From Candidatus Odinarchaeia archaeon (GTDB lineage: Archaea; Asgardarchaeota; Odinarchaeia; Odinarchaeales; Odinarchaeaceae), in contig JAHQXC010000019.1 in NCBI GenBank assembly GCA_029856525.1, forward strand, positions 1-18,908: a DNA stretch of 18,908 bases. Reading direction: 5' to 3'. Positions 309 to 18,599 of the stretch are shown one piece after another; position 1 is the first letter of the stretch, and each line of letters starts with the position of its first letter. The translations under genes and the position numbers were made by a program. The notes beneath the pieces are model-generated. The model saw only the letters and a list, made by a program, of their open reading frames with translations. It was not told the DNA's origin and searched no databases.

Positions 309-1058
309 CTAGAAGATTTTAGGTACAACCTCATAGTGTTTTCTGAAAGCATTCGGTTTTTTAACAACTATCAGCCCTGTATAATCGATGTTATACATTC
401 GAATCATATACTTTGACATCAGCTTCTGGTATTTTTTTAAGGGTGTATCCTTCTCTACTTGATTTAATACTTTATCATTTCCCATCTTCTTACGCTGTCT
501 TAAATATCTGATTAAACCATCTATCAGCTGCTGAACGACACCTCTCAAATAAGCCTGCTCCCGTTTCCATCTATCATGGTCTTCATAATAGTATTCAGCT
601 ATTTTTATAGCGATCCTCCTTCTAAGCAGCATTGCAAAACCGAGCACAGATGTACCTATCGCATACATCGCCAGGCCTATATATAATATTAGCCTGTCAA
701 GGGTTAGAAAAAGACTCGCTATAACTATTGATGAAGCCACTAACATTAATATTAACCCGGCTATATGAGTGAGTATGCGAAGCGTCATCATCTTGTTAAC
801 GTTAGGTATATTCTTAGGGAATGTACCGATCCTCCATAAGACTTTCCGTATATTCTTCCATTTCTCCGCGAAAGCCCTGCCTAGAACCCCTTTCTTAATA
901 TTATCGTCTAATCTTCGAAAATCAGGACACCTGTTGATTCTATAACCGTCTATAAGCGATATTATATTCAATAAAATATTTATTTTTGTAATTTTCTGAA
1001 AGCCGAGCGGCTCAGTGACCTCTCTCTCAGTTCCTCTCTCAACCTCGCTCATGAACAT
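309..1058 (-). CDS. Hypothetical membrane protein with two central TM helices
   Basis: 249-aa ORF filling the space up to an AT-rich divergent promoter region. Two hydrophobic segments (ILTHIAGLILMLVASSIVIASLFL; LILYIGLAMYAIGTSVLGFAMLL) are followed by basic RRR. No recognised family. Start could be ATG 1058 or ATG 1052. Confidence 0.75.
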   Translation of the reverse strand: MFMSEVERGTEREVTEPLGFQKITKINILLNIISLIDGYRINRCPDFRRLDDNIKKGVLGRAFAEKWKNIRKVLWRIGTFPKNIPNVNKMMTLRILTHIAGLILMLVASSIVIASLFLTLDRLILYIGLAMYAIGTSVLGFAMLLRRRIAIKIAEYYYEDHDRWKREQAYLRGVVQQLIDGLIRYLRQRKKMGNDKVLNQVEKDTPLKKYQKLMSKYMIRMYNIDYTGLIVVKKPNAFRKHYEVVPKIF

Positions 1059-4583: not shown

Positions 4584-4877
4584 TCACTGGGTTTTCTCAG
4601 CTTCAACCTCTTCCATTTCCTCTTCAAGCTCCTCTATAGGAATCGGAGGCGGCGTAGTCATCATAGTATAGCCGATCCATGCCGCGATCGCCATAATTCC
4701 TATAATCGCGAGCCATAAAGGTATGGCTAAAGCCCATTGATAGTTCGCTAGAAGAGTGTTCCCGAGCGGGAGAACATCCGGTAGTAAAGGCACGAGGATA
4801 ACCCAGTAAGTGTACCCTATTATAATTATAACAGCTACTATAAATATTATAGCGCCGTAAGCTTTATCCTTAGCCAT
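4584..4877 (-). CDS. Small 2-TM membrane protein, DPM2-like (dolichol-phosphate-mannose synthase / GPI-GnT regulatory subunit family), with acidic C-terminal tail
   Basis: 97 aa; AGGAGG SD 7 nt upstream. The pattern D-x3-G...YTYWVILVP...ALAIPL...IGYTM parallels human DPM2 as recalled (YTAWVILLP...AVAIPL...ISYVM). Manual alignment only. The CDS itself is near certain; the family call is moderate. Confidence 0.65.
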   Translation of the reverse strand: MAKDKAYGAIIFIVAVIIIIGYTYWVILVPLLPDVLPLGNTLLANYQWALAIPLWLAIIGIMAIAAWIGYTMMTTPPPIPIEELEEEMEEVEAEKTQ

Positions 4878-4953
4878 CAGTGTTCCTCCTATATTGTAAA
4901 ATATAAGTTGCTTACAAGTATAAATGGTTTATGCTTTTAAACATTTAGCAGCT

Positions 4954-6090
4954 CTACAAGCTGACGCTTCTCCGTCTAATCTTACTAACCAGTCTGCTTA
5001 TACCCGGGTCGACTCTAAGAGATAAAGCGTAGTAGTAGGTTAACCACATTAAGGGGATAGCGTAAAGCGCAGGGGATAGCAAATCCCCTATGTAACCGTT
5101 TAACTCGCATTTTATAAAATCATATGGACTGGTTAATATAATTTTATCCGCTCCAGCGTATTTCCTCCACATTCTAGCTATGTATCTAGCTGTGTTTATT
5201 ATATTCTCAGTTGCGAAGGAGCTGTGAGGGGTGAGTAGTATAAGCGGTTTTTTAACCGGGTTTTCAGGTTCAAGCGTCTCTACTAGACTGTGAACGAATT
5301 CCTCTGTTCTAATATGGCATGCATCCTGTTTACAACCCTCCATGAACATGATTAAAGCCTGTTTAACAGCTATTAAATATCTGATTCCATCCCCTAAAAC
5401 ATAGAATGTTTCACCGCGGTGTTTTACTAGTTCAACAGCTGTTTTCTTAGCCCACTCTATGATCTTAGAATTTTTAGCAGTCTCCTCGATGATACCTGGA
5501 AGTTTCTCTCTCTGAATTTTTTTAAGATTCAACGCTTCAGGTGTATTTATAACTGTTAGAAGCAGATCGTTTAGTAAGGCTAAACTGGTTTGAAATGTTG
5601 AAGTTGATATTAACGGTTTCTCAGGATACTTCACTGTATGAGTGTTAAGTATAATACTGTTACCTGTTTTTAAATCATAGATTGAGCCAGGTGCAGGTTC
5701 TTTAAGATTCGTTATCCATACAGCTAGTTTTATTTTCGGACTCAGTTTTTTGAAAACCTGGATTGTATCATATGTGGCTCCTGACTGTGAGAGAAATATG
5801 ACAGCGCTATCCTCATCTATCATCAAACTCTGTTCAAGCAGGAAGCGTGAATGATATACTTCGATCGGTTTCTTAGAGAAATAACGCCAAACTATTTTTG
5901 AAATACGCGGTATAATATATTTATCCCCTGCTCCTGTGAGAATAATATTCGAGCATTCTCTAAGTTTACTAGCCGCCTCCTCTATTCTCCCCTCCTCTAA
6001 TTTTAAAGTATTCTTAACGCTTTCACCCAGTGTTAAAATATTCTCTTTAACTCCGAGTTTATCGTATTCAGCTTCTAATTCATCCCACAA
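4954..6090 (-). CDS. Stand-alone double-SIS sugar-phosphate isomerase-family protein (GlmS isomerase domain-like, no glutaminase domain)
   Basis: SIS motifs TGAGD, FLSQSGATYDT, ISTSTF, second SIS VLGDG...ALIMFME...EEFVHS, C-terminal VDPGISRLVSK. TTG start with GGTGG SD; 12 bp after the mutase stop. Confidence 0.85.
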   Translation of the reverse strand: MWDELEAEYDKLGVKENILTLGESVKNTLKLEEGRIEEAASKLRECSNIILTGAGDKYIIPRISKIVWRYFSKKPIEVYHSRFLLEQSLMIDEDSAVIFLSQSGATYDTIQVFKKLSPKIKLAVWITNLKEPAPGSIYDLKTGNSIILNTHTVKYPEKPLISTSTFQTSLALLNDLLLTVINTPEALNLKKIQREKLPGIIEETAKNSKIIEWAKKTAVELVKHRGETFYVLGDGIRYLIAVKQALIMFMEGCKQDACHIRTEEFVHSLVETLEPENPVKKPLILLTPHSSFATENIINTARYIARMWRKYAGADKIILTSPYDFIKCELNGYIGDLLSPALYAIPLMWLTYYYALSLRVDPGISRLVSKIRRRSVSL

Positions 6091-6102: not shown

Positions 6103-7476
6103 TTAAACAGTTAATTCTCTCATCGAATCGTTTACTAAATCCACTCCCCATTTAGAAAGCTGCTCCGCTTCTTTCTGAGAGTATGATTCAGCGTAGCATC
6201 TTATGATCGGCTCAGTTCCAGAGGCTCTTATTAAAACCCATCCTTTATCCGCGTATATTTTAACTCCATCGGTTGTATCTAACTTGTAGTTTTTCAGGTT
6301 CTCCTTCAACTTATTTAATAGTTTTTCTTTTAAACTATCAGGGCATGAAATTTTTTTCTTGACTTGGTAATATTTCGGAAGCTTTTCAATTAACTTCGAC
6401 AGGGATTCACCTGTTTCAGCTAAATATTCAAGCATTAGCATAGCCCCCATCGCGCCGTCTCTAACATACTGGTGTGGAGCATAGAATATGCCACCGTTCT
6501 CTTCACCGCCGATAACGCCATTCACCTGCTTTAAAGTTCTCGCCACGATTACACTGCCGACTTTTGTTGTAATAAGCTGGCCGCCGTATTCTTCAACCAC
6601 GTCTTTCACTATATTAGATGTAGCTATCGGGGTTACCACCCTCCCTCCCCCATTTTTTAACAGCGTTTTAACTACTAGCAGCGCGAAGCTTTTATCACCG
6701 GTTATAAACCCGCCTTTCTCATCGACGAATACCACACGATCCGCGTCACCGTCATGCGCTATACCTATATCCGCGCCTATTTCTTTAACGGTTTTTTTAA
6801 GAAGAGTCAAACTTTCATCGTTAGGTTCAGGTGATCTCCCAGGGAAGAACCCGTCTAAATTAGAGTTTATTGTAATAGTTTCACATCCGGCTAGTGTTGT
6901 AAGATAAGGTGTCACCAAGCCTCCGACACCGTTACCGGGGTCAACGACCACTTTTAAACCTGATTTTTTAATTAAATCCACGTTCACTTTTCGGATTATA
7001 CTCTCCATATAATTTTTTAAAATATCTCCCCCTCTCTCATAGCCTCCTATAAGCCGCCAGTTAACGTTAACATAGTTATTCGAAAAATAGATTCTTTCAA
7101 TCTCCTCCTCCTCTATTGTTGAAATCTCCACTCCATCAGATCCTACAACCTTCACGCCGTTAAATTCAGGTGGATTATGTGAAGCGGTTATGATAACAGC
7201 GCCGCGCGCATTTAACTCTCTAGCAGCGTATTGAATAGCCGGTGTAGGCGCTAACCCTACGTCGATGATATTCACTCCCGTTGATAGCAACCCTGAGATG
7301 ACAGCGTTTTTTAGCATTAAACCGCCGGCTCTCCCATCTAAGCCTACTAGTATAGGCCCTGTTTTGAAATATGTTCCTATAGCTTTACCTATTTTAAGAG
7401 CGAATTCAGCTGTTATATCTATGTTCACTACACCGCGTATACCATTCGTTCCGAATAATCTGTTCAACCCTATCAT
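6103..7476 (-). CDS. glmM: Alpha-D-phosphohexomutase (phosphoglucosamine mutase or PMM/PGM)
   Basis: FGTNGIRG, phosphoserine loop ITASHNPPEFNG, metal loop DGDADR, sugar loop GEENGG, C-terminal IRASGTEPIIRCYAES. Substrate specificity (GlmM vs PMM/PGM) cannot be fixed from motifs. Confidence 0.88.
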   Translation of the reverse strand: MIGLNRLFGTNGIRGVVNIDITAEFALKIGKAIGTYFKTGPILVGLDGRAGGLMLKNAVISGLLSTGVNIIDVGLAPTPAIQYAARELNARGAVIITASHNPPEFNGVKVVGSDGVEISTIEEEEIERIYFSNNYVNVNWRLIGGYERGGDILKNYMESIIRKVNVDLIKKSGLKVVVDPGNGVGGLVTPYLTTLAGCETITINSNLDGFFPGRSPEPNDESLTLLKKTVKEIGADIGIAHDGDADRVVFVDEKGGFITGDKSFALLVVKTLLKNGGGRVVTPIATSNIVKDVVEEYGGQLITTKVGSVIVARTLKQVNGVIGGEENGGIFYAPHQYVRDGAMGAMLMLEYLAETGESLSKLIEKLPKYYQVKKKISCPDSLKEKLLNKLKENLKNYKLDTTDGVKIYADKGWVLIRASGTEPIIRCYAESYSQKEAEQLSKWGVDLVNDSMRELTV

Positions 7477-7597: not shown

Positions 7598-7993
7598 ATG
7601 CCGCATGAATTCACTTATAGAGGGTTTACTCTAGAAGAATTACAGAAAATGAGCATGGACCAGTTTATCACGTTACTCCCCAGCAGGTATAGGAGGAGTT
7701 TGAAAAGAGTATCTCAGCAGCAGAAAAAATTTTTAGAGAAGATAAGAAGGATCAAGTCTTCAGGTAAAGGCAATGTTAAAATAAGAACGCATATCAGGGA
7801 GGCTGTAATCCTACCGGAGATGGTGGGGTTAACTATTTACGTGCATAACGGTAAAGAGTTTCTCCCAGTTGAGATAACCCCTGATCATATAGGCCATTAC
7901 CTCGGCGAGTTCGCGCCGACATGCAAGAAAGTGGTTCACGGTAATCCTGGTATAGGTGCAACCAAGTCCTCGCTGTACGTGCCTCTGAAATAG
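7598..7993 (+). CDS. rps19: 30S ribosomal protein S19 (uS19)
   Basis: FTYRG...IRTHIRE...ILPEMVG...VHNGKEF...[12 protein letters not shown]...[14 protein letters not shown], archaeal uS19 signature. Confidence 0.97.
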
Positions 7994-8003
7994 AGAATAT
8001 TCT

Positions 8004-8795
8004 TCAACTATAAGCGAAGAATCTTCTATCATTTCTCTTCACTTTCAGCGGGTAGTTGAATAGCTCGCTTATATTCTCAGACGTTAACACCTCATCTATC
8101 AGACCAGCCTTCATAACTTCACCTTTCTTTAAAAGCAGCGCGTTAGTGAAGCTGGAAGGTATCTCTTCAAGATTGTGAACGACTAGAATAACCGTTACAT
8201 CTAATCTTTCACGGCTTAGCTTATCTATTAAGTTAAGCATCCGCTCCCGGCTCGGTAGATCTAAGCCCTGGCACGGTTCATCTAATAATAGGAGGCTAGG
8301 GTTAGCCATTAAAGCTCTTCCGATAAGGCTTCTTTGCTGTTCCCCTCTTGAAAGATTATTAAATTTCTCATATTTTATTTTAGAGCAGTCTAGAAAGTCG
8401 ATTATGCTCTCAGCGTATTCTAAATCCTCCCGTGAGGGTTTATCATATAAGCCGAAGCTTGCGAATTTACCTGATAATATAACTTGTAGGAAACTATTAT
8501 TCTGGGGAATACACTGAAGCAGATCCGGTGATACGAAGCCTATTCTCTGTCGTAGAACTCTGAGATTAACTTCTCCGAATAAGTAGCCTAATACTTTAAT
8601 CCTACCGCTAGAAGGCCAGATATACCCGGAGATCATTTTCAGTAATGTTGTTTTACCGGCTCCATTCTCGCCTAGAATAACCCATCTTTCACCCGGTAAA
8701 ACCCGCCAAGATACGTTTCTAAGAATTACACGATCCCCTCTAATATAATATATGTTTTCAAATTCAACTGCACAGTTATTTGACAATTTAAGCAC
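8004..8795 (-). CDS. Single-domain ABC ATPase (ModF/YlmA-like), no adjacent permease
   Basis: Walker A GENGAGKTT, Q-loop region GFVSP, signature LSRGEQQR, Walker B LLLLDEP, H-loop VVHN. Alternative start TTG 8786 has a GGTG SD. Confidence 0.9.
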   Translation of the reverse strand: MLKLSNNCAVEFENIYYIRGDRVILRNVSWRVLPGERWVILGENGAGKTTLLKMISGYIWPSSGRIKVLGYLFGEVNLRVLRQRIGFVSPDLLQCIPQNNSFLQVILSGKFASFGLYDKPSREDLEYAESIIDFLDCSKIKYEKFNNLSRGEQQRSLIGRALMANPSLLLLDEPCQGLDLPSRERMLNLIDKLSRERLDVTVILVVHNLEEIPSSFTNALLLKKGEVMKAGLIDEVLTSENISELFNYPLKVKRNDRRFFAYS

Positions 8796-9190: not shown

Positions 9191-9221
9191 AGTAGTGGAT
9201 AATGTAGTAAAAGGTGCGAAT

Positions 9222-9710
9222 ATGCCTAAATTCCGTTACTCAATAATCGGGATAGACCCGGATACCACAGCTAAGGGTAGTGCACGCGAGGTTCACGCCT
9301 CACCTAAAGAGACGAGAGAGCTTTGCGCTGCTATTAAAAATATGAGGTTAAATGAGGCTAAACAATATCTTGAAGATGTTATAATGAAACGTAGACCTGT
9401 AGCATTTAGAAGATATAAGAAAAAGGTGCCTCATAAGCGGGGTCTAGATAAATGGTATGCGGGTCGTTACCCTGTTAAATCAGCTATCGAAGTATTGAAG
9501 GTTCTCCAGAATGTTGAAGCTAACGCTGAGGCTAAAGGACTTGACGTTGACGGTTTAAAGATAATTCACGCGGCTGTTCATAGAGGACGCTGTATTCGTA
9601 AAGCGATTCCAAGAGCTTTTGGAAGAGCTACACCCTATTATGAATGTTTAATTCACATAGAGATCGTAGCCTCCCAGCTCGGTGTAGGGGAGATAGAGGA
9701 GGTTTCATGA
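9222..9710 (+). CDS. rpl22: 50S ribosomal protein L22 (uL22)
   Basis: HASPKETRELC, YKKKVPHKRG, AGRYPVKSA, PRAFGRATP. Start moved from GTG 9195 to ATG 9222 (AGGTG SD at 9212-9216). Confidence 0.96.
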   Translation: MPKFRYSIIGIDPDTTAKGSAREVHASPKETRELCAAIKNMRLNEAKQYLEDVIMKRRPVAFRRYKKKVPHKRGLDKWYAGRYPVKSAIEVLKVLQNVEANAEAKGLDVDGLKIIHAAVHRGRCIRKAIPRAFGRATPYYECLIHIEIVASQLGVGEIEEVS

Positions 9711-10489
9711 ATATGCCTGCTAAAACACACTTTGTTCAAACCGGATTGAAGCATACTGAAATAGACGCTTTCCTCGCTAAAGAGTTAAGTAAAGCAGGTT
9801 ACAGCGGTGTGGATATTCAGAAAACACCTTTAGGAGCTAGAGTTATAATATACGCTGAACGCCCTGGAATAGTTATCGGAAGATCTGGTAAGAATATAAA
9901 AGATTTAACAACTATTCTAGAGGAAAAATTCGGTCTTGAAAACCCTCAGATAGAGGTTAGTGAATTAGAAGTACCTGAACTTAAAGCACGGGTTGTGGCT
10001 AATCTACTAGTTCAGAGATTGGAGCGAGGAGACCATTTTAGAAGAGCCGCCTACGCTATCATGCGCAGGGTTATGGCTGCAGGTGCTAAAGGTGTTGAAA
10101 TAAAGATTTCAGGTAAGCTTTCAAGCGAGAGAGCTAAATACCAGAAGTTCCGCGACGGTGTTGTCTGTAAAGCCGGTGAACCAGCCATGCGTTACGTAGA
10201 TTACGCTGCTCTCCAAGCTTATCTTAAGCCTGGTATTATGGGTGTTCAAGTAAAAATAATGCCTCCTGACGTTGAGATGCCGGATGTTATTAAAATAAAA
10301 CCGCGCGAGGAGCCTACGCCTGTTAAAGAGGGTCTTGAACCATCCCAGACTATTGAGGAACCTGTTAAATCTGAGAGCATGGAACCAGCAGCTTCCAAGA
10401 ATGAAGTGCAAGCTGAGGGTTCAGAGGAGTCGGAGCCCCCTCAAGAGGCTAAACCTGAGTCTACTATTGAAGAATTAAAGGAGGAGTAG
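9707..10489 (+). CDS. rps3: 30S ribosomal protein S3 (uS3) with acidic C-terminal extension
   Basis: KTPLGARVIIYAERPGIVIGRSG, KGVEIKISGKL, PGIMGVQVKIMPP. Start set at ATG 9707 (ATGA overlap, GGAGG SD). Confidence 0.97.
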   Translation: MNMPAKTHFVQTGLKHTEIDAFLAKELSKAGYSGVDIQKTPLGARVIIYAERPGIVIGRSGKNIKDLTTILEEKFGLENPQIEVSELEVPELKARVVANLLVQRLERGDHFRRAAYAIMRRVMAAGAKGVEIKISGKLSSERAKYQKFRDGVVCKAGEPAMRYVDYAALQAYLKPGIMGVQVKIMPPDVEMPDVIKIKPREEPTPVKEGLEPSQTIEEPVKSESMEPAASKNEVQAEGSEESEPPQEAKPESTIEELKEE

Positions 10490-10491
10490 AA

Positions 10492-10707
10492 TTGGCGATA
10501 TACCGGATGAATCAAATCCGCGGCATGAGCGATGAAGAACTTGATAAAAAATTAGAGGAACTATACGCAGAACTATCGCAGCAGAGAGTTCTCATAGCAG
10601 GAGGAGGCGCTGTCGAAAATCCTAGTAGAATCAGATTGCTGAGAAGAACTATAGCTAAAATTTTAACAGTTAAAAACGAACGGTTAAAGAAACCGGAGGT
10701 CAAGTAA
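10492..10707 (+). CDS. rpl29: 50S ribosomal protein L29 (uL29)
   Basis: IRGMSDEEL...ENPSRIRLLRRTIAKILTV; TTG start with GGAGGAG SD. Confidence 0.95.
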   Translation: MAIYRMNQIRGMSDEELDKKLEELYAELSQQRVLIAGGGAVENPSRIRLLRRTIAKILTVKNERLKKPEVK

Positions 10708-10708
10708 A

Positions 10709-10987
10709 GTGCGCGATGAAATCGCTCAAAAAAATATTTTAACGCTTATAGGCTCCGAGATTAAAATAGTCGGGTCTTCGGATAGAAGCCTTAAAGGTTT
10801 AACAGGTTTAGTGTTAGATGAGACTAAAAACATGATAATTATGAGAAAAAATACGCGGATCCTTAAGATTCCTAAAAAAGCGGTTAAAATCATGTTTAAA
10901 CAGAAATCACAGCGTATAACAGTTAACGGCGCTCAGCTGATAGGATTACCGGAGAATAGGATAAAAAACTACTATGGGAGGGGTTAA
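10709..10987 (+). CDS. rnp1: Ribonuclease P protein component 1 (aRpp29/POP4)
   Basis: LIG...SSDRSLKGLTGLVLDETKNM...IPKK...F...G..LIGLPENRIK; canonical position between rpl29 and rps17; GTG start with GGAGGT SD. Confidence 0.88.
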   Translation: MRDEIAQKNILTLIGSEIKIVGSSDRSLKGLTGLVLDETKNMIIMRKNTRILKIPKKAVKIMFKQKSQRITVNGAQLIGLPENRIKNYYGRG

Positions 10988-10990
10988 ATC

Positions 10991-11326
10991 TTGCGTAATA
11001 TTGGTGTAGACGTTAAACCGCCTAAAAATGAATGCGATGATCCTAAATGTCCATTCCACGGCTCTCTTCCTATAAGAGGGAGAATAATGGAAGGCGTGGT
11101 GACAGGTGTAAAAATGATGGAGACGATAACAGTTAGACGCGATTATCTATGGTATGTTAAAAAATATAAAAGATATGAGAGACGTCACACTCAGATTTCA
11201 GCCCATCTACCAGGCTGCATTGAAGTTAAAGAAGGGGACCGTGTTAAAATAGCGGAGTGCCGTCCGCTCTCTAAAACTGTAAGTTTCGTTGTAATTGAGA
11301 AAATGGAGGATAACGCGAATGTCTAG
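10991..11326 (+). CDS. rps17: 30S ribosomal protein S17 (uS17)
   Basis: RNIGVDV.PP...[36 protein letters not shown]; TTG start. Confidence 0.97.
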
Positions 11327-11807
11327 TAAACCTGATAAAGCTCAGAAGAAAGCCCCGGTTACGAAAGCCGCTAAAGCCGGCGGGGCTAAAAGAGCTAGAA
11401 GAAAGATTGAATTAATTATTAAACCGAAGATATCCAGGGGTTTATCAGTAGGCTCCTATATAAAATGCGCTGATAATTCAGGCGCTAAACTATTAAAAAT
11501 AATCAGCGTCCTCGGGTATAAAGGCCCAATCAACCGATTACCTAACGCTAGTGTAGGCGACATGGTCGTCGTCTCAGTTAAGCAGGGAACCCCTGAAATG
11601 AGAAGGCAGGTCTTAAACGCGGTTATCATCAGGCAGAGGAAACCATATAGACGGCCAACCGGCGAGTGGGTTCAATTCGAAGATAACGCCGCCGTCATAA
11701 CCTCACCTGTAGGTGAACCTAAAGCCTCCGAGATCAGAGGCGCTATGGCTTTAGAGGCTGCTAGCAGGTGGCCTAGGCTCGCATCCGCGGCTAGCACTGT
11801 GGTTTAA
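11319..11807 (+). CDS. rpl14: 50S ribosomal protein L14 (uL14) with Lys/Ala-rich N-terminal extension
   Basis: [31 protein letters not shown]...FEDNAAVI. Start set at ATG 11319 (GGAGG SD 11305-11309). Confidence 0.96.
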
Positions 11808-11822
11808 GGAGTTTGATAGGAT

Positions 11823-12188
11823 ATGATATCTAGAAAACCGTCTAAGCAAAGAAAAATATTATTCGCGCTCCCCCATCATAGAAGAGTTAAGCTAATGGAG
11901 TGCAGGCTAAGCGATGAACTAGCTGAAGAGTTAGGTGTGAGAAGGCTTCCGATAAGGAAAGGAGACAGTGTAATGGTTATATCCGGGGAGTTTAAAGGCA
12001 GTGAGGGAACTGTTACAAGAGTTGATAGGAAAAACTACACTATCCGAGTTAAAGAACTTTCAATTGAGAAAGCTGACGGTGCTGAATACAATGTCCCCAT
12101 CCACTACTCTAACGTAATTATTACGAAGATAGAGAAAGATAAATGGCGTTCAAAGATAATAGAGCGCCGCGCCGCTAAAGGAGGATAA
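11823..12188 (+). CDS. rpl24: 50S ribosomal protein L24 (uL24)
   Basis: KPSKQRK, KOW motif RKGDSVMVISGEFKG, PIHYSNVIITK. Confidence 0.95.
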   Translation: MISRKPSKQRKILFALPHHRRVKLMECRLSDELAEELGVRRLPIRKGDSVMVISGEFKGSEGTVTRVDRKNYTIRVKELSIEKADGAEYNVPIHYSNVIITKIEKDKWRSKIIERRAAKGG

Positions 12189-12192
12189 GATT

Positions 12193-12954
12193 ATGGGTAA
12201 ACTCGGTCCTACACTCCACCTTAAAAGATTAAACGCTCCAAGACTATGGAGAATACCGCGTAAAACAGTTAAATTCGCAATAAAAACCACACCAGGCCCG
12301 CATAAAAAAGGCTTGTATCTACCTTTAGGAATGATTATTCGAGATATACTCGGCTACGCTAAAACATTGAAAGAAGTAAAATATATTTTAACGAATAAAA
12401 TGGTTTTAATAAACGGTAAACCGCGTGTAAACTACAGGTTCCCTGTCGGATTAATGGATGTAATTGAAATACCGAAAACCAAGGAAGCATACAGAGTTTT
12501 AATCAACCCTAAAGGGTTCATACTACACCCTATACCTAAAAAAGAAGCTTCAGTAAGGTTATGCATGATAATGAATAAAACATCCGTTAAAGGCGGCCAC
12601 ATACAGCTTAATTTAAGCGACGGCTCTAATATTCTAATAAAAGTTAAAAACCCTGAGAAACCTGTTGAAGATAAATACCATACTAAAGACTCTCTTCTAA
12701 TAAATAACGCTGATAATAAGATCAAAGAACACATCCCGTTAAAAGAGGGCTCTTATGTATTAATCTTCGCCGGTAAAAGCATGGGTTACACAGGGGTTGT
12801 TAAAAATATAACTAAGCATCCAGGCCCCTTCGCCAGCGTGGTAACCGTGTCAACAGAAAACCAGGGTGAAGTTACAACAGCTTTAGAATACGTATTCCCG
12901 ATCGGCGTGGATAAACCTTTAATCTCCCTACCAGAGGTGTCAGCGAATGAGTGA
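12193..12954 (+). CDS. rps4e: 30S ribosomal protein S4e (eS4)
   Basis: HLKRLNAP, PGPHK, FPVGLMDVI, VKGGHIQLNLSDGSN, YVFPIG. Confidence 0.97.
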   Translation: MGKLGPTLHLKRLNAPRLWRIPRKTVKFAIKTTPGPHKKGLYLPLGMIIRDILGYAKTLKEVKYILTNKMVLINGKPRVNYRFPVGLMDVIEIPKTKEAYRVLINPKGFILHPIPKKEASVRLCMIMNKTSVKGGHIQLNLSDGSNILIKVKNPEKPVEDKYHTKDSLLINNADNKIKEHIPLKEGSYVLIFAGKSMGYTGVVKNITKHPGPFASVVTVSTENQGEVTTALEYVFPIGVDKPLISLPEVSANE

Positions 12955-13486
12955 GAGAGATATCTTAAACGATTGGAATAGTAATCCTATGAGGAAACCT
13001 AGATTAGCGAGTGTAACCGTTAATATAGGAGTCGGAATGTCAGGTGAAAAATTAAATAAAGCGTTAACAGTATTAGAGACTATAACAGGCCAGAAACCTG
13101 TAGCAACCTTAGCTAAAAAAAGTGTCCGAGACTTTTCTATTAAAGCCGGTGAAAGAATAGGCGCTAAGGTTACTCTGAGAGGCAGTAAAGCTGAAGAATT
13201 CTTGAAAAAAGCCCTCGAAGTTGTAGAGTATAAAATCCCTGAAAGCCACTTCGACCCTTATGGAAACGTTTCATTCGGGATAAAAGAGCATATTGAAATT
13301 CCAGGAGCTGAATATGATCCTGAAATCGGTATATTCGGCATGGATGTATGTATCACTATCGAGCGCCCAGGGTATAGAATTAAAAAACGGAGAGTCTTCA
13401 AAAGAAAGATACCGATCTCTCACCGGGTTAAGAGAGAGGAGGCTATCCTCTTCATGAAAGAAAAATTTGGAGTTAAAATAGAGTAA
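12947..13486 (+). CDS. rpl5: 50S ribosomal protein L5 (uL5)
   Basis: NPMRKPR, VNIGVG, IGAKVTLRG, FDPYGNVSFGIKEHIEIPG.EYDPEIGIFGMDV. Confidence 0.97.
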   Translation: MSERDILNDWNSNPMRKPRLASVTVNIGVGMSGEKLNKALTVLETITGQKPVATLAKKSVRDFSIKAGERIGAKVTLRGSKAEEFLKKALEVVEYKIPESHFDPYGNVSFGIKEHIEIPGAEYDPEIGIFGMDVCITIERPGYRIKKRRVFKRKIPISHRVKREEAILFMKEKFGVKIE

Positions 13487-13498
13487 AGGTGAGTGAAG

Positions 13499-13645
13499 AT
13501 GGCGGCGAAAACTTACGGTAAAGGTTCTAGAACATGTAAACTATGCGGAACCCATCAAGCGATTATTAGACGGTATGGTTTAAACATATGCCGTCGCTGC
13601 TTCAGAGAACAAGCTAAACAAATAGGCTTTAAAAAATACAGTTAG
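13499..13645 (+). CDS. rps14: 30S ribosomal protein S14 (uS14, zinc type); not in the supplied ORF track
   Basis: Hand translation [48 protein letters not shown] (48 aa), CxxC...CxxC; AGGTGA SD; canonical position between rpl5 and rps8. Confidence 0.96.
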
Positions 13646-13655
13646 GTGAGGTTAC

Positions 13656-14048
13656 TTGACGTTAATGGACCCGTTAGCTAACGCATTATCTAATATAATT
13701 AATAGAGAGCGGATAGGTAAAAAAGAGTGTATTATCGCGCCAGCCTCCAAGCTTATCGCAAACACTCTTAGAGTTATGCAGAAGACAGGTTACATAGGAG
13801 AATTCGAGTATGTTGACGACGGGAGAGCTGGCAAATTCCGTGTTCAATTATTAGGAAGAATAAATAAATGCGGTGTGATAAAACCCAGATACCCTGTTAA
13901 ATACAGTGAGCTTGATAAATGGGAGAGTGAATTCCTCCCCTCAAAAGACTTCGGAATACTCCTCATCACAACACCTCAAGGCGTTATGAGCCACCTAGAA
14001 GCTAGAGAGAAAAAAATCGGCGGCAGACTATTAGCTTACGTATATTAG
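13656..14048 (+). CDS. rps8: 30S ribosomal protein S8 (uS8)
   Basis: [45 protein letters not shown]; TTG start with AGGTGAGG SD. Confidence 0.97.
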
Positions 14049-14058
14049 AGGGATCCTG

Positions 14059-14628
14059 ATGGTTAAAGTAGATTATAGCGAGAAATTGATAAGTATCCCT
14101 GCCGGGGTTAACGTGAATATAGAAGGGAAGATTATCACAGCCACCGGTCCTAAAGGAACAGTGAAAAAAGACTTCACAGCCGCACCGTTCAAATTTGAAA
14201 TAGTAGATAACGCTGTGAAAATTTATAAGAATAATTTAAATAAGAAAGAGCTTGCAATGCTAGGGACGCTAGCGTCACATGTGAAAAACATGTTTACCGG
14301 TGTAACTAAAGGTTATACGTATAAGATGAAAATAGTTTACGCGCACTTTCCTATAACTGTTAAAGTAGCTGGCCCAGATAAACTTCAAATCGAAAACTTC
14401 GGCGGGGAACGCTACCCTAGAATAGCTAAAATACTTGAAGGCGTCTCAGTTCGCGTTGAAGGAGATGATTTAATAATTACAGGCGCTGATAAAGAAGCAG
14501 TCTCACAGACAGCGGCTAATATTCAACAAACCTGTAAGATCAGAGATAAGGATCCGAGAGTCTTCATGGATGGCATATACGTATACCAGAAACTTGAAGG
14601 TGATGAAATCTTCTGGAAGCTTATCTAA
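14059..14628 (+). CDS. rpl6: 50S ribosomal protein L6 (uL6)
   Basis: GPKG, YKMKIVYAHFPI, NFGGE, AANIQQ...DPRVFMDGIYV. Confidence 0.97.
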   Translation: MVKVDYSEKLISIPAGVNVNIEGKIITATGPKGTVKKDFTAAPFKFEIVDNAVKIYKNNLNKKELAMLGTLASHVKNMFTGVTKGYTYKMKIVYAHFPITVKVAGPDKLQIENFGGERYPRIAKILEGVSVRVEGDDLIITGADKEAVSQTAANIQQTCKIRDKDPRVFMDGIYVYQKLEGDEIFWKLI

Positions 14629-14640
14629 CGGTGAAATAAT

Positions 14641-15312
14641 ATGAGTGAAATTAGCAAACTTATTAAACTTAGAGCGAAAATTAAAAGCCGTAAGCCGGCT
14701 TTCATAAGACAGGAGAGCTGGAAGTATAAGAGGCTAAGCGAAGCATGGCGGAGACCGCGTGGTTTAGACAACAAGGTTAGAAAATGTAAAAAAGGTTATA
14801 TTAAAATGCCTAACATAGGCTACCGGTCTCCTAGAAAGGTTAGAGGTTACCATCCTACGGGTAGAGTTGAAGTTCTGGTTGAAAACATTAAGCAGCTTGA
14901 TCTCCTAGACCCGGCTAAACATATTATCAGGCTTTCATCAAAGCTAGGGATGCGTAAGAAAACCGAGATAGTTCAATTAGCTCAAGAGAAAGGGTTACCG
15001 ATAACAAATCTACCTTTAAAGAGAGCTGAAACCCCTGAAAAATGGGAGAAGCTGACAGAGCTTGAAACAGAGGAGTTAAAACCGGAGCTAGATGAAAAAT
15101 ACGTGGAGGAGCTTGAAGCGGAAGGAGCGCTTGAAGGCCTACCTGAATACGAAGTTGAAGAAAAAGAGAAAGCCGGTAAACCTGAGAAAACCGCTAGGAA
15201 AACCAAGGCTTCTAGGAAGAAAGAGGAAGCTAAATCTAATCTTAAAGAAGGAGAGCAGAGTAAGACAGGTAAAAAATTAAAGCGAACTGTGAAAAAGGTT
15301 GATGAAAAATGA
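14641..15312 (+). CDS. rpl32e: 50S ribosomal protein L32e (eL32) with about 100-aa charged C-terminal extension
   Basis: FIRQESWKYKRL...WRRPRGLDNK...PNIGYRSP...HPTG; the core ends near residue 123 of 223. Confidence 0.96.
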   Translation: MSEISKLIKLRAKIKSRKPAFIRQESWKYKRLSEAWRRPRGLDNKVRKCKKGYIKMPNIGYRSPRKVRGYHPTGRVEVLVENIKQLDLLDPAKHIIRLSSKLGMRKKTEIVQLAQEKGLPITNLPLKRAETPEKWEKLTELETEELKPELDEKYVEELEAEGALEGLPEYEVEEKEKAGKPEKTARKTKASRKKEEAKSNLKEGEQSKTGKKLKRTVKKVDEK

Positions 15313-15758
15313 GTCTTAGACCTCAGAAAGAGCTTGCAGCTAAAATATTAAAAGTTGGTAAAAGCAGGGTTTGGATCGACCCTAATAGAATCGACGACGT
15401 TATGATCGCTATAAGAAGACAGGATATTAAGAAGCTAATACATGAAAAAGTAATAGCTAAGAAACCTGCTACAAGCATAAGCAGAGGTAGAGTTAGAGTA
15501 AACTTAGAGAAGAAGAGGAAAGGGCTTAGAGTAGGTCCAGGTTCTAGAAAAGGCGGTAAATTATCAACTATACCAGAGAAAAGAATATGGATTTATAGAA
15601 TAAGAAAACAGCGTGAATATCTTAAACAGCTTAGAGACAGGCGGCTGCTATCCACTTCTAATTATAGAATGCTATATTTAAGAGCTAAGGGCGGGGAGTT
15701 TAAGTCACTAGCCCAGCTTAAAGCATTCATCACACAAAACAAGCTTTTAAGGAGATAG
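15309..15758 (+). CDS. rpl19e: 50S ribosomal protein L19e (eL19)
   Basis: LRPQKELAAKILKVGKSRVWIDP, GPGSRKG, YRMLYLRAKGGEFK; ATGA overlap. Confidence 0.97.
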   Translation: MSLRPQKELAAKILKVGKSRVWIDPNRIDDVMIAIRRQDIKKLIHEKVIAKKPATSISRGRVRVNLEKKRKGLRVGPGSRKGGKLSTIPEKRIWIYRIRKQREYLKQLRDRRLLSTSNYRMLYLRAKGGEFKSLAQLKAFITQNKLLRR

Positions 15759-15762
15759 AAAT

Positions 15763-16422
15763 ATGGCTAAAGGTCCAGAATACCGTGTTCAATTCAGACG
15801 GAGAAGAGAAGGTAGAACAAACTATTATCTCCGTAGAAGATTATTAATGTCAAGGTTAACTAGATTCGTTGTCAGAAAAAGTTTAAACCATTTAATAGTT
15901 CAGTTGATAACCCCTAAAATCGGCGGAGACCAAACCGTGGTGACCGTTAACACTAAAGAGCTTCAGACAAGATACGGCTGGAAGGCTGGAACAGGGAATC
16001 TGCCCGCAGCTTATTTAGCAGGATATCTAGCAGGTAAAAGAGCTCTCGCTAAAGGTGTTGAAAAAGCGATACTTGACATCGGATTATACCCCTGCGTGAA
16101 AGGTTCTAGAATCCTCGCAGCGCTTAAAGGAGCTTTACAAGCCGGTTTGAAAATACCTGTAGCCGAAGAGATTCTACCAAGCGATGAGAGAGTTAAAGGA
16201 GTTCATATTAAAGAGTACTATGAGAAAATAGTCGGCAACCAGTTGAAAGCTGGTAAAAACCAGTTTGCTAAAATCTTAGCCGCCGGCGTCGATCTTTTAA
16301 AATTACCTGAACATTTTGAAGAAGTACTTAAAAATATTGATCAAAGTTTTCAAATAGAGAAAACCACCAGTGGAAAGACTTCTAAAAAAACTGTTAAAAT
16401 CTCTAAGGGAGGTCGTAGCTGA
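15763..16422 (+). CDS. rpl18: 50S ribosomal protein L18 (uL18)
   Basis: YRVQFRRRREGRTNY, GNLPAAYLAG, AILDIGL, ALKGA..AGL.IP. Confidence 0.97.
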   Translation: MAKGPEYRVQFRRRREGRTNYYLRRRLLMSRLTRFVVRKSLNHLIVQLITPKIGGDQTVVTVNTKELQTRYGWKAGTGNLPAAYLAGYLAGKRALAKGVEKAILDIGLYPCVKGSRILAALKGALQAGLKIPVAEEILPSDERVKGVHIKEYYEKIVGNQLKAGKNQFAKILAAGVDLLKLPEHFEEVLKNIDQSFQIEKTTSGKTSKKTVKISKGGRS

Positions 16423-17046
16423 ATGTCAAACCTCGATGAATGGCAGCCGAAAACAAGGCTTGGAAGAATGGTGAAGGAAGGTAAGATTACAAATATAGAA
16501 GAGGTTTTCAGACTCTGCCAACCGATTAAAGAAGTGGAAATAGTAGACTCCCTCCTACCTAATCTTCAAGAAGAGGTTATAGACCTCAACTTAGTTCAGA
16601 GGCAAACCGACGCCGGTGAAATAGGGCGTTTTAAAGCTTCAGTGATTGTTGGAAACGGGGACGGCTACATCGGGTTCGGTGAAGCTAAAGCTAAAGAAGT
16701 TGGACCGGCTATAAGACTTGCAATAATTAAAGCTAAGCTTAATATCAGACCTGTGAGAAGAGGATGCGGAAGCTGGGAATGCGGATGCGGGACACCTCAC
16801 TCTCTACCTTTTAAAACCGAGGGGAGGGCTGGAAGTGTAAGACTTACTTTAAAGCCGGCTCCTAAAGGTGTCGGCCTCGTAGTAGCTGACAGCATTAAAC
16901 TGGTATTAAGACTGGCTGGAATAAAAGACGTGTGGTGCTGGAGTAAAGGTCATACTAGAACCACTTTCAACTTCGCTAAAGCAGCTTACGATGCTTTAAA
17001 AAACACGTATAATATTATGACGCCTAAAGAATGGGAGCGTGCGTGA
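16423..17046 (+). CDS. rps5: 30S ribosomal protein S5 (uS5)
   Basis: [52 protein letters not shown]. Confidence 0.97.
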
Positions 17047-17530
17047 AACTATGGAAGCTAATAAAATTTTATCCGTCATACGTATAAGGGGAACAGTCGA
17101 CGTGAACTATGAAATAGAGGATACGCTGAAAATGCTTCGCCTACATAAACCGAATCACCTTGTTTTAATAGACAACAGACCTTCCTATGTGAAAATGCTT
17201 CATAAAGTAAATAATTATGTAGCATGGGGGGAAGTCTCAGCGGAGATGATTGAAAAACTTCTAAGAGAAAAAGGGAGATTGAAAGGTAATAAACCGTTAA
17301 CCGACGAGTATTTAAAAAATAATTCAGAATTTAACTCGATAAATGAGCTGGCTAGAAAAATCTACGAGCTTAAAGCGAAAATCACTGATGTAAAGGATTT
17401 AAAACCCGTGTTCAGATTACACCCGCCTACAGGCGGCTTTAAAAACTCTAAGAAAAAACCTTATAATTTAGGCGGCGTCTTAGGTTACCATGGGAAAGAT
17501 ATAGAAACCCTGATAAATAGAATGATATAG
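17039..17530 (+). CDS. rpl30: 50S ribosomal protein L30 (uL30, archaeal long form)
   Basis: [39 protein letters not shown]. Start is GTG 17039 or ATG 17051. Confidence 0.96.
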
Positions 17531-17551
17531 CGTAAATCGAGGTAGAGGATA

Positions 17552-18136
17552 TTGTCTGAGAATGACGAAGATAGGAGAAAAAAGAAGAGATGGTGGGAGG
17601 AAGACTCTTTTGACGAATTCGAAGACGTAGATGAATTATTCAAGAAGCTAGCTGAAGGATTCTTCAACCTGCCTAAATTAAGTGAAATGATCGAAAGCAT
17701 TCTAAAAGAATTCGAACAGGATAAAGAGAAATTCATGAATTTAAAGGAACCCCTCTTCTGGGGTTTTTCCATAACCAGAGGCCCGGATAATAAGCCGGTT
17801 ATAAGAAAACTCGGTAATATAGAGCCTGGTGAAGAGAAAGCTATTGTTAAAGAAGAGCGGGAGCCCCTCGTAGATATATTAAGCGAGGGCAAAGAAATAG
17901 TGGTGATCGCTGAACTACCCGGCGTTGAAAAAGATCAGATAAATCTGAAAGCTACAGATAACTATCTTATATTAAATGCAACCGCACCGCAGAGGAAATA
18001 TTATAAGAAAATAGATTTCAAAGAGAGAATAGACCCGAGCAGCGCTAAAGCGGTTTATAAGAATGGCGTGCTAGAAGTTAGATTCAAAAAACTCGACGCT
18101 TCAAACACTTCCGGAGCTGAAATAAAAATACAATAG
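17552..18136 (+). CDS. hsp20: Archaeal small heat-shock protein Hsp20 (alpha-crystallin domain)
   Basis: GFSITRGPDNKPVIR.LGN, EREPLVDI, VIAELPGVEK, AKAVYKNGVLEV; TTG start with GAGGT/AGAGGA SD. Confidence 0.93.
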   Translation: MSENDEDRRKKKRWWEEDSFDEFEDVDELFKKLAEGFFNLPKLSEMIESILKEFEQDKEKFMNLKEPLFWGFSITRGPDNKPVIRKLGNIEPGEEKAIVKEEREPLVDILSEGKEIVVIAELPGVEKDQINLKATDNYLILNATAPQRKYYKKIDFKERIDPSSAKAVYKNGVLEVRFKKLDASNTSGAEIKIQ

Positions 18137-18155
18137 AAGATTAGAGGAGGTTTCT

Positions 18156-18599
18156 ATGGCGCTTAGATTCACTAAGAAAGTTAGAAAATATCGTGGTGGA
18201 AGAACCTACGGTTATGGTAGAGTCGGACAGCATAGGAAAAGCGGTATGAAAGGCGGTAAAGGATTCGCTGGAATGAAAAAACATGGTAAAAGCTGGATAT
18301 TAGCTTATATGCCGGACTACTTCGGTAAACGCGGATTCAAAGCCCCATCCACTATGACCTCTATAGTTAAACCGATAACACTTAGAGAACTAGACTACCT
18401 TGTAAAACGTTTAGGTGTCAGCTCAACCTCTAAAACTCAGCTTCCCACTATAAATCTTAAAGAACACGGATATAACAAGCTTCTATCAACAGGCTACCTG
18501 TCAACTCCGCTAGAGATCATTGTTGAAAAAGCGACAGCTAAAGCTGTAAGCAAAGTTGAATCAATAGGCGGCAGAGTCATAATAACCGCTGGAAGATAG
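18156..18599 (+). CDS. rpl15: 50S ribosomal protein L15 (uL15)
   Basis: KKVRKYRGGRTYGYG..GQHRKSG..GGKG.AG, FGKRGF, KVESIGG; GGAGGT SD. Confidence 0.97.
   Translation: MALRFTKKVRKYRGGRTYGYGRVGQHRKSGMKGGKGFAGMKKHGKSWILAYMPDYFGKRGFKAPSTMTSIVKPITLRELDYLVKRLGVSSTSKTQLPTINLKEHGYNKLLSTGYLSTPLEIIVEKATAKAVSKVESIGGRVIITAGR

Follow-up and report, generated by a model that had tools for sequence, protein, structure and literature searches.

A small archaeal membrane hairpin protein related by sequence to the eukaryotic glycolipid subunits DPM2 and PIG-P

The closest described systems involve two small eukaryotic proteins. DPM2 (PF07297) is a regulatory subunit of both the type-II dolichol-phosphate-mannose synthase and the GPI-GlcNAc transferase (GPI-GnT), and PIG-P (also Gpi19; PF08510) is a subunit of the second of these complexes. 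Both are endoplasmic reticulum (ER) subunits that are essential or linked to disease. Human DPM1 has no transmembrane (TM) helices and requires DPM2 and DPM3, and in eukaryotes it is DPM3, not DPM2, that tethers DPM1 (PMC5526996). The type-III Dol-P-Man synthase of P. furiosus (PDB 5MLZ) carries a TM domain made of two helix hairpins, which are said to correspond in topology to DPM2 and DPM3 (PMC5526996). DPM2, PIGP and PIGY are considered homologous (PMC13478489). According to a 2008 survey, the GPI-GnT accessory proteins had not been detected in archaea (PMC2446393); more recently, DPM2 and PIGP were traced to a pre-LECA duplication within a family that comes from archaea, with a supplementary table that gives PF07297 an 'Asgard' sister lineage and lists DPM2 and PIGP as LECA nodes (PMC12872463, Nature, December 2025).

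The window examined here is the whole stretch of 18,908 nucleotides of contig JAHQXC010000019.1, from an Odinarchaeia (Odin) assembly of 1.32 Mb in 127 contigs that is 93% complete. On its minus strand, an ORF at 4584..4877 (stop codon included, ATG at 4877) encodes a 97-aa protein of the DPM2/PIG-P superfamily; the peptide quoted in the first-pass annotation, which was made from the letters alone, corresponds to residues 3-75 of this translation. Homologues that are 64-98% identical carry the labels Odinarchaeota or Odinarchaeia. A Shine-Dalgarno-like AGGAGG can be read 7 nt 5' of the ATG (4885..4890, minus strand). The 76-nt gap between this gene and the SIS gene that precedes it contains a TATA-like TTTATAC (4918..4924, minus strand), which is a possible promoter of its own, and a second AT-rich candidate promoter box (4898-4906, minus strand). 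A simple bacterial promoter and terminator scan, which carries little weight for an archaeon, returned nothing.

The hairpin gene belongs to a co-oriented trio, and the order GlmM-SIS-hairpin is kept in four closely related (Odin-like) genomes. The first gene of the trio, at 6103..7476 (minus strand), encodes an archaeal phosphoglucosamine mutase, GlmM (TIGR03990, 566.6 bits against a cut-off of 439). The second, at 4954..6090 (minus strand), is the 5' co-oriented neighbour of the hairpin gene and encodes a 378-aa double-SIS protein with a Pfam SIS domain. This protein, whose gene starts 12 nt 3' of GlmM, lacks a glutaminase domain and matches residues 260-587 of the 601 residues of GlmS at 55 bits, far under the cut-off. 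Its likeness is to the isomerase half of GlmS only (GlcN6P synthase/deaminase-like), and it may be a GlcN6P synthase that depends on ammonia, or else a deaminase. On the other side of the hairpin gene lie GatE and GatD, in convergent orientation.

Members of the archaeal family were assembled into a 91-member alignment (A1). The consensus begins with M-x-K-D-x-x-x-G and continues through TM1, a variable loop, W-A-x-x-I-P and TM2, ending in A-W-I-G-W-T-M-x-T-T-P-P-P-x-P-I-E-E and an E/K-rich tail. Positions G8, W67 and G69 are invariant, and at least 90% of members share D4, I64, I68, T71, T75, P76 and P78. The family hallmarks are thus the N-terminal D-x3-G and the boundary motif WIG[WY]TMxTTPPPxPIEE with the charged tail that follows; in the Odin protein the strongly conserved boundary motif WIGYTMMTTPPPIPIEE leads into a charged helix. 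AlphaFold2, run with A1, confidently predicts a hairpin (pLDDT 88.5) with helices at residues 2-31 (TM1), 48-74 (TM2) and 81-96 (the acidic tail helix), and by this model the Odin protein is a small two-TM membrane hairpin.

Both termini of the hairpin, of which the N-terminal one is short and bears the D-x3-G, are probably cytoplasmic. For the C-terminus, we infer this orientation because natural fusions carry a C-terminal helix-hairpin-helix (HhH) domain, a domain type of cytoplasmic nucleic-acid-binding proteins. The fused members are P0093, P0104 and P0128 (two TM helices with HHH_5) and P0111 (two TM helices with DUF4332/HHH_5); in each the HhH domain lies beyond a long charged linker, and one member is labelled Kariarchaeaceae. 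From their domain content, these fusions could serve to tether nucleic acid to the membrane. A different arrangement is seen in P0139 (181 aa, NCBI source), a tandem DPM2-like hairpin with two matched stretches that scores 39.9 bits against DPM2 and has no WIGWT motif. A 339-aa frame in genome G316 was rejected as a further fused form, being a high-GC open frame that overlaps a neighbouring gene.

In public databases, family members are named 'hypothetical protein' or 'transcriptional regulator'. The second type of name, including 'predicted DNA-binding transcriptional regulator', is attached to P0024, P0034 and P0038 and to Atlas clusters. Since no DNA-binding domain was detected in the family members scanned, the HhH fusion forms excepted, this naming looks like a propagated misannotation.

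The first-pass annotation had proposed a resemblance to human DPM2; the comparison was made here with the Pfam DPM2 model. PF07297 scores 44.8 bits on the Odin protein (E 1.5e-11), well over its curated gathering score of 27.3, and aligns residues 4-74 with profile positions 2-71 of 75. As a control, the same model was applied to 14 well-known genomes translated in six frames, and in none of them did it exceed its cut-off. The Odin protein resembles DPM2 in its size class, its two-TM hairpin, an N-terminal acidic-x3-G, a TM1 rich in aromatic residues and a TM2 with A-x-x-I-P at its start and I-x-Y-x-M at its end, and the setting is also similar in that the Odin genome encodes a TM-less, DPM1-like GT2. 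Unlike DPM2, the protein continues past the matched part of the 75-position profile with a conserved TTPPPxPIEE motif and a charged tail helix. A second difference is that no DPM3 (PF08285) came up in the 93%-complete genome, where an unrelated 564-aa frame is the best match (E 0.17), and for this reason the Odin protein is not filed as DPM2 proper.

The resemblance to PIG-P is equally well supported. The PF08510 model scores 35.3 bits on the Odin protein (E 1e-8) and spans profile positions 3-85 of 121, with positions 86-121 unmatched; as its gathering score of 39.3 is missed and the C-terminal region is not covered, the Odin protein does not classify as PIG-P proper. Run exhaustively over 1.84 billion cluster representatives, phmmer returned 262 clusters (50% identity) at E ≤ 1e-3 and reached P0169, a true eukaryotic-type PIG-P, at E 7.3e-6. 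P0169, named 'phosphatidylinositol glycan class P protein' by JGI, is a full-length PIG-P (120.9 bits on PF08510, profile positions 2-121 of 121). Composition-adjusted BLASTP between the Odin protein and P0169 gives E 2e-13, and hhalign of A1 against P0169 gives a probability of 96.8% (E 2.3e-10) over 78 columns. The shared features follow one another collinearly: an acidic-x-x-Y/x-G at the N-terminus, the TM1 aromatics, a W-A-x-A-x-P where TM2 begins and a G-Y-x-x-x-[ST]-T-x-P-P where it ends. A word-indexed search with P0169 for eukaryotic PIG-P relatives returned P0169 alone.

To control for composition, 1000 shuffled versions of P0169 were made in which residues were permuted only inside each segment (N-terminus, TM1, loop, TM2 and tail). 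The A1 profile scores 45.6 bits on the real protein; for the shuffled versions the mean is 1.0 bits and the highest score 12.2. In the reverse test, P0169 against the Odin protein, the real score is 43.1 bits and the maximum for the segment-shuffled Odin protein is 10.5. The similarity is therefore significant, collinear over both TM helices and not explained by composition, and on this sequence evidence the 97-residue Odin protein is genuinely related to both DPM2 and PIG-P. The suspected DPM2 homology thus holds, with a Pfam match that goes beyond generic TM composition and agreement among pairwise, profile-profile and shuffle tests, and the motifs that had been picked out by eye coincide with conserved positions of A1. 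The small archaeal proteins with WIGYTMxTTPPP, which the first-pass annotation had mentioned, are also real, as the 262 clusters attest.

The place of the family in eukaryotic evolution can be taken from the literature. By the published PF07297 tree, adopted here as it stands, the Odin protein belongs to the lineage that was later duplicated into DPM2 and PIG-P, and a protein that branches before the duplication is not an orthologue of DPM2 alone (PMC12872463). The idea that the archaeal family may be the prokaryotic root of DPM2 is consistent with the published Asgard placement of PF07297, and has to be reworded in that the Odin protein is a relative of both proteins and not a DPM2 orthologue. 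The Asgard sister lineage and the DPM2/PIGP duplication are already in print (PMC12872463), so that the evolutionary connection between Asgard archaea and eukaryotes, published in outline, is not new. In the literature searched, no description was found of the motif of the archaeal family, of its range outside Asgard or of its function. What is of value here is the description of the family, its range beyond Asgard and a testable pairing with a TM-less GT2.

The range of the family is wide. The A1 profile detected the gene in 275 of 301 sampled Asgard genomes, including 87 of the 90 of high quality; 65 of 70 genera have it, and most genomes carry a single copy. When GTDB species genomes were scanned on the basis of the motif, 520 loci were confirmed. 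Bathyarchaeia supply most of the best 80 of these, and the rest are from MAGs of Odin, Jord, Baldr and other Asgard archaea. Among genomes of the Bathyarchaeia phylum, which in GTDB is Thermoproteota and was sampled around one complete Bathyarchaeia genome, 94 of 101 carry the gene. These carriers include 72-aa tail-less forms in 1.6-Mb single-contig genomes, which are suspected to belong to ammonia oxidisers. In three Euryarchaeota, M. jannaschii, H. volcanii and M. acetivorans, the Pfam DPM2 model did not reach its cut-off. Given its presence in those 94 genomes, the family is broadly archaeal and not an Asgard-only signature protein, and the initial framing as a eukaryotic-signature protein proves too narrow. 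An archaeal counterpart of the GPI-GnT accessory proteins is instead a near-universal core gene in Asgard and in the Bathyarchaeia phylum (compare PMC2446393). One more piece of the ER glycolipid machinery is thereby anchored in the archaeal ancestor, and archaea with few partners offer simple systems for studying how the hairpin acts.

Little can be learned from most gene neighbourhoods. The conserved neighbour seen most often is S-adenosylhomocysteine hydrolase, present at 53 of the 80 loci that rank best among the 520, mostly in Bathyarchaeia; its gene lies directly 5' of the hairpin gene on the same strand (loci L013-L092). This adjacency has no link to glycosylation and no functional reason for it is seen, which counts against a role as a glycosyltransferase accessory. 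Further neighbours are housekeeping genes. Three unrelated lineages have sugar-nucleotide or amino-sugar genes next to the hairpin gene, and these give weak hints at sugar metabolism. In Odin they are GlmM and SIS, in Jordarchaeia a gene for a CE4 polysaccharide deacetylase, and in one genome of the Bathyarchaeia phylum (L101) a gene for a sugar-phosphate nucleotidyltransferase. In no lineage examined does a glycosyltransferase adjoin the hairpin gene.

One Asgard family (f14), whose sequences resemble a protein labelled Heimdallarchaeota, has a second hairpin paralogue in 11 of 12 genomes. Examples on the minus strand are found at 1489-1806 of locus L108, 1477-1755 of L109 and 1414-1734 of L110, with further f14 loci at L111-L121. 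The tail motif of this second copy is T-x-E-P-[IV]-R-x-[TS]-Y-[ED]-x-A-Y-E. In four genera it overlaps or adjoins a gene for a PlsC-type acyltransferase (PF01553, 242-258 aa), and at L110 its convergent neighbour is a UbiA prenyltransferase; from this gene order, a role with lipid enzymes that is wider than glycosylation is suggested. Pfam favours DPM2 for the canonical f14 copy in two of the three tested (33.5-34.6 bits) and PIG-P for the second copy in three of the six tested (26-30 bits, sub-threshold), while neither model matched the other copies tested and the scores of the two paralogues against the true PIG-P P0169 overlap and are thus not decisive. Since the two paralogues lean toward DPM2 and PIG-P respectively, the split between these proteins, or a parallel one, might, though with low probability, have begun before eukaryotes.

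The candidate partners in the Odin genome are few. Seven genes belong to GT4 and just two to GT2, the first of the GT2 genes encoding a 585-aa PgaC/NodC-like synthase. The second encodes a protein of 246-251 aa with a basic C-terminus and no hydrophobic or TM segment. In NCBIfam it is matched best by polyprenyl-phosphate sugar synthases (PpgS, AglJ and Dol-P-hexose transferase), and its single PDB match at E ≤ 1e-10 is to the catalytic domain of the P. furiosus Dol-P-Man synthase (residues 27-241 of 374). Among its best 120 matches, nearly all named relatives are 219-263 aa in length, with one of 310 aa. Seven Asgard lineages are represented among these relatives, which include Odin, Hod, Baldr, Jord, Frey and Hermod as well as other Asgard MAGs. 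The many GT2 paralogues of Bathyarchaeia blur any co-occurrence of the hairpin with a single GT2.

The best explanation overall, which we consider to have nearly an even chance of being correct, is that the hairpin is a genuine archaeal member of the DPM2/PIG-P group that would serve as an accessory or anchor of a lipid-linked-sugar transferase. In such a mechanism the hairpin would sit in the membrane as the accessory or anchoring subunit, a function that we propose tentatively. We infer that the best candidate partner would be the only TM-less GT2 of the DPM-synthase type in the genome (246 aa). Such pairing would keep the enzyme at the membrane surface and help it to use polyprenyl phosphate, a split arrangement like that of the eukaryotic type-II DPM synthase, in place of which Thermococcales have a fused transmembrane domain. 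As the TM hairpins of the P. furiosus enzyme are considered equivalent to DPM2 and DPM3 (PMC5526996), the Odin pair could be a split form of the same machine; this is the most economical reading of the data, though we hold it with less than even confidence. The match of the Odin GT2 to the catalytic domain of 5MLZ is in line with it. Unlike the situation in 5MLZ, the Odin hairpin is the product of a separate gene and not a fused domain, and it shows no sequence similarity to the TM domain, against which the family profile gave no match even at E ≤ 10. No fusion of a hairpin with a glycosyltransferase was seen among the family members, the fusions seen being with HhH/DUF4332; this and the lack of a DPM3 match both count against a GT2-accessory role. 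When the Odin GT2 (alignment A3) and the hairpin (A1) were co-folded, the score was 0.00 in a run without controls, which counts neither way.

The alternative that survives best, although it is on balance unlikely, is that the hairpin is a general membrane adaptor, a housekeeping scaffold or tether with varied cytoplasm-facing partners, such as lipid-synthesis enzymes, that would dock on the TTPPPxPIEE tail. In that case the part played by DPM2 and PIG-P in glycosylation would be a eukaryotic specialisation. A gene that is near-universal, usually single-copy and placed among unrelated housekeeping genes would fit such a function, as would the HhH/DUF4332 fusions and the position of the f14 paralogue next to a PlsC-type acyltransferase in four genera and UbiA at one more locus. 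The conservation pattern also fits, being strongest in the probably cytoplasmic boundary motif and tail, which are tied to no known enzyme. However, both eukaryotic descendants work in lipid-glycosylating complexes, and the simplest inference is that the ancestor did likewise. A TM-less GT2 of the DPM-synthase type, which needs a membrane partner or anchor, is moreover widespread in the same Asgard lineages.

A more far-reaching proposal is that the free-standing hairpin and the TM-less GT2, as they occur across Asgard, are the direct prokaryotic precursor of the eukaryotic accessory system of DPM synthase and GPI-GnT or, more broadly, that the hairpin is an ancient adaptor on which soluble lipid-modifying enzymes (GT2 or PlsC-type acyltransferases) would dock. 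We consider this improbable, with perhaps a small minority chance of being right.

It is less probable still that the hairpin has a PIG-P-like role, as a GlcNAc-transferase subunit acting on an inositol phospholipid, which would make it an ancestor of GPI-GnT and not of a DPM-type synthase. The two-TM hairpin is shared with PIG-P and the alignment runs from an N-terminal Y-G to the T-x-P-P extension; the motif at the end of TM2 and this extension (G-Y-x-x-x-[ST]-T-x-P-P) fit PIG-P better than DPM2, and in A1 the members that match PIG-P outnumber those that match DPM2 (54 and 44 of 91, at E ≤ 0.01). The metabolic setting is also suggestive, in that a myo-inositol-1-phosphate synthase is encoded in the genome and the products of the adjacent SIS isomerase and GlmM genes act on amino-sugar phosphates en route to UDP-GlcNAc. 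The GlmM-SIS synteny, however, is limited to the four closely related genomes, and the C-terminal third of the PIG-P profile is replaced in the Odin protein by the acidic tail. Unlike the setting of PIG-P, the 93%-complete Odin genome also gave no match at E ≤ 1 to the PIG-A N-terminal domain (PF08288) or PIG-C/GPI2 (PF06432), and PIG-L was not found in it either.

Structure comparisons do not bear on the choice between these readings. Foldseek of the AlphaFold2 model against the Swiss-Prot AFDB and PDB returned generic helical hairpins only (E > 1). With VIA-align, the best Z among 48,161 chains is 7.7, and the TM hairpin of the GT2 enzyme GtrB (Z 7.2) is tied with unrelated coiled coils; for this hairpin fold, fold searches are uninformative. 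Sequence searches of the PDB with the Odin protein and with the family profile gave no match to DPM2, to PIG-P or to the TM domain of the P. furiosus synthase. A weak, sub-threshold match to Phage_holin_3_6, another two-TM family, in 52 of the 91 members of A1 is read as background. A chance resemblance, with the ORF being an ordinary hydrophobic hairpin or a non-gene and the DPM2 match a matter of TM composition, could draw on this holin match and on the generic fold hits, but is ruled out by the curated Pfam threshold, the 14 control genomes and the shuffles, by motifs that are collinear at four places of the alignment, and by conservation in hundreds of genomes together with a strong ribosome-binding site.

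Several other features of the window were noted in passing. A 249-aa ORF at 309-1058 (minus strand) has no Pfam or NCBIfam family at E < 0.001. Within a large ribosomal-protein cluster on the plus strand (about 9195-18599), a 194-aa ORF at 17552-18136 (plus strand) has a weak HSP20 match (27.3 bits). The uS19 gene, at 7598-7993 (plus strand), lies apart from this cluster, separated from it by an ABC-ATPase gene in the opposite orientation (8004-8795, minus strand) whose best match is ModF-like. This layout of uS19, ABC-ATPase and ribosomal-protein cluster is conserved in related Odin genomes (L013 and L014).
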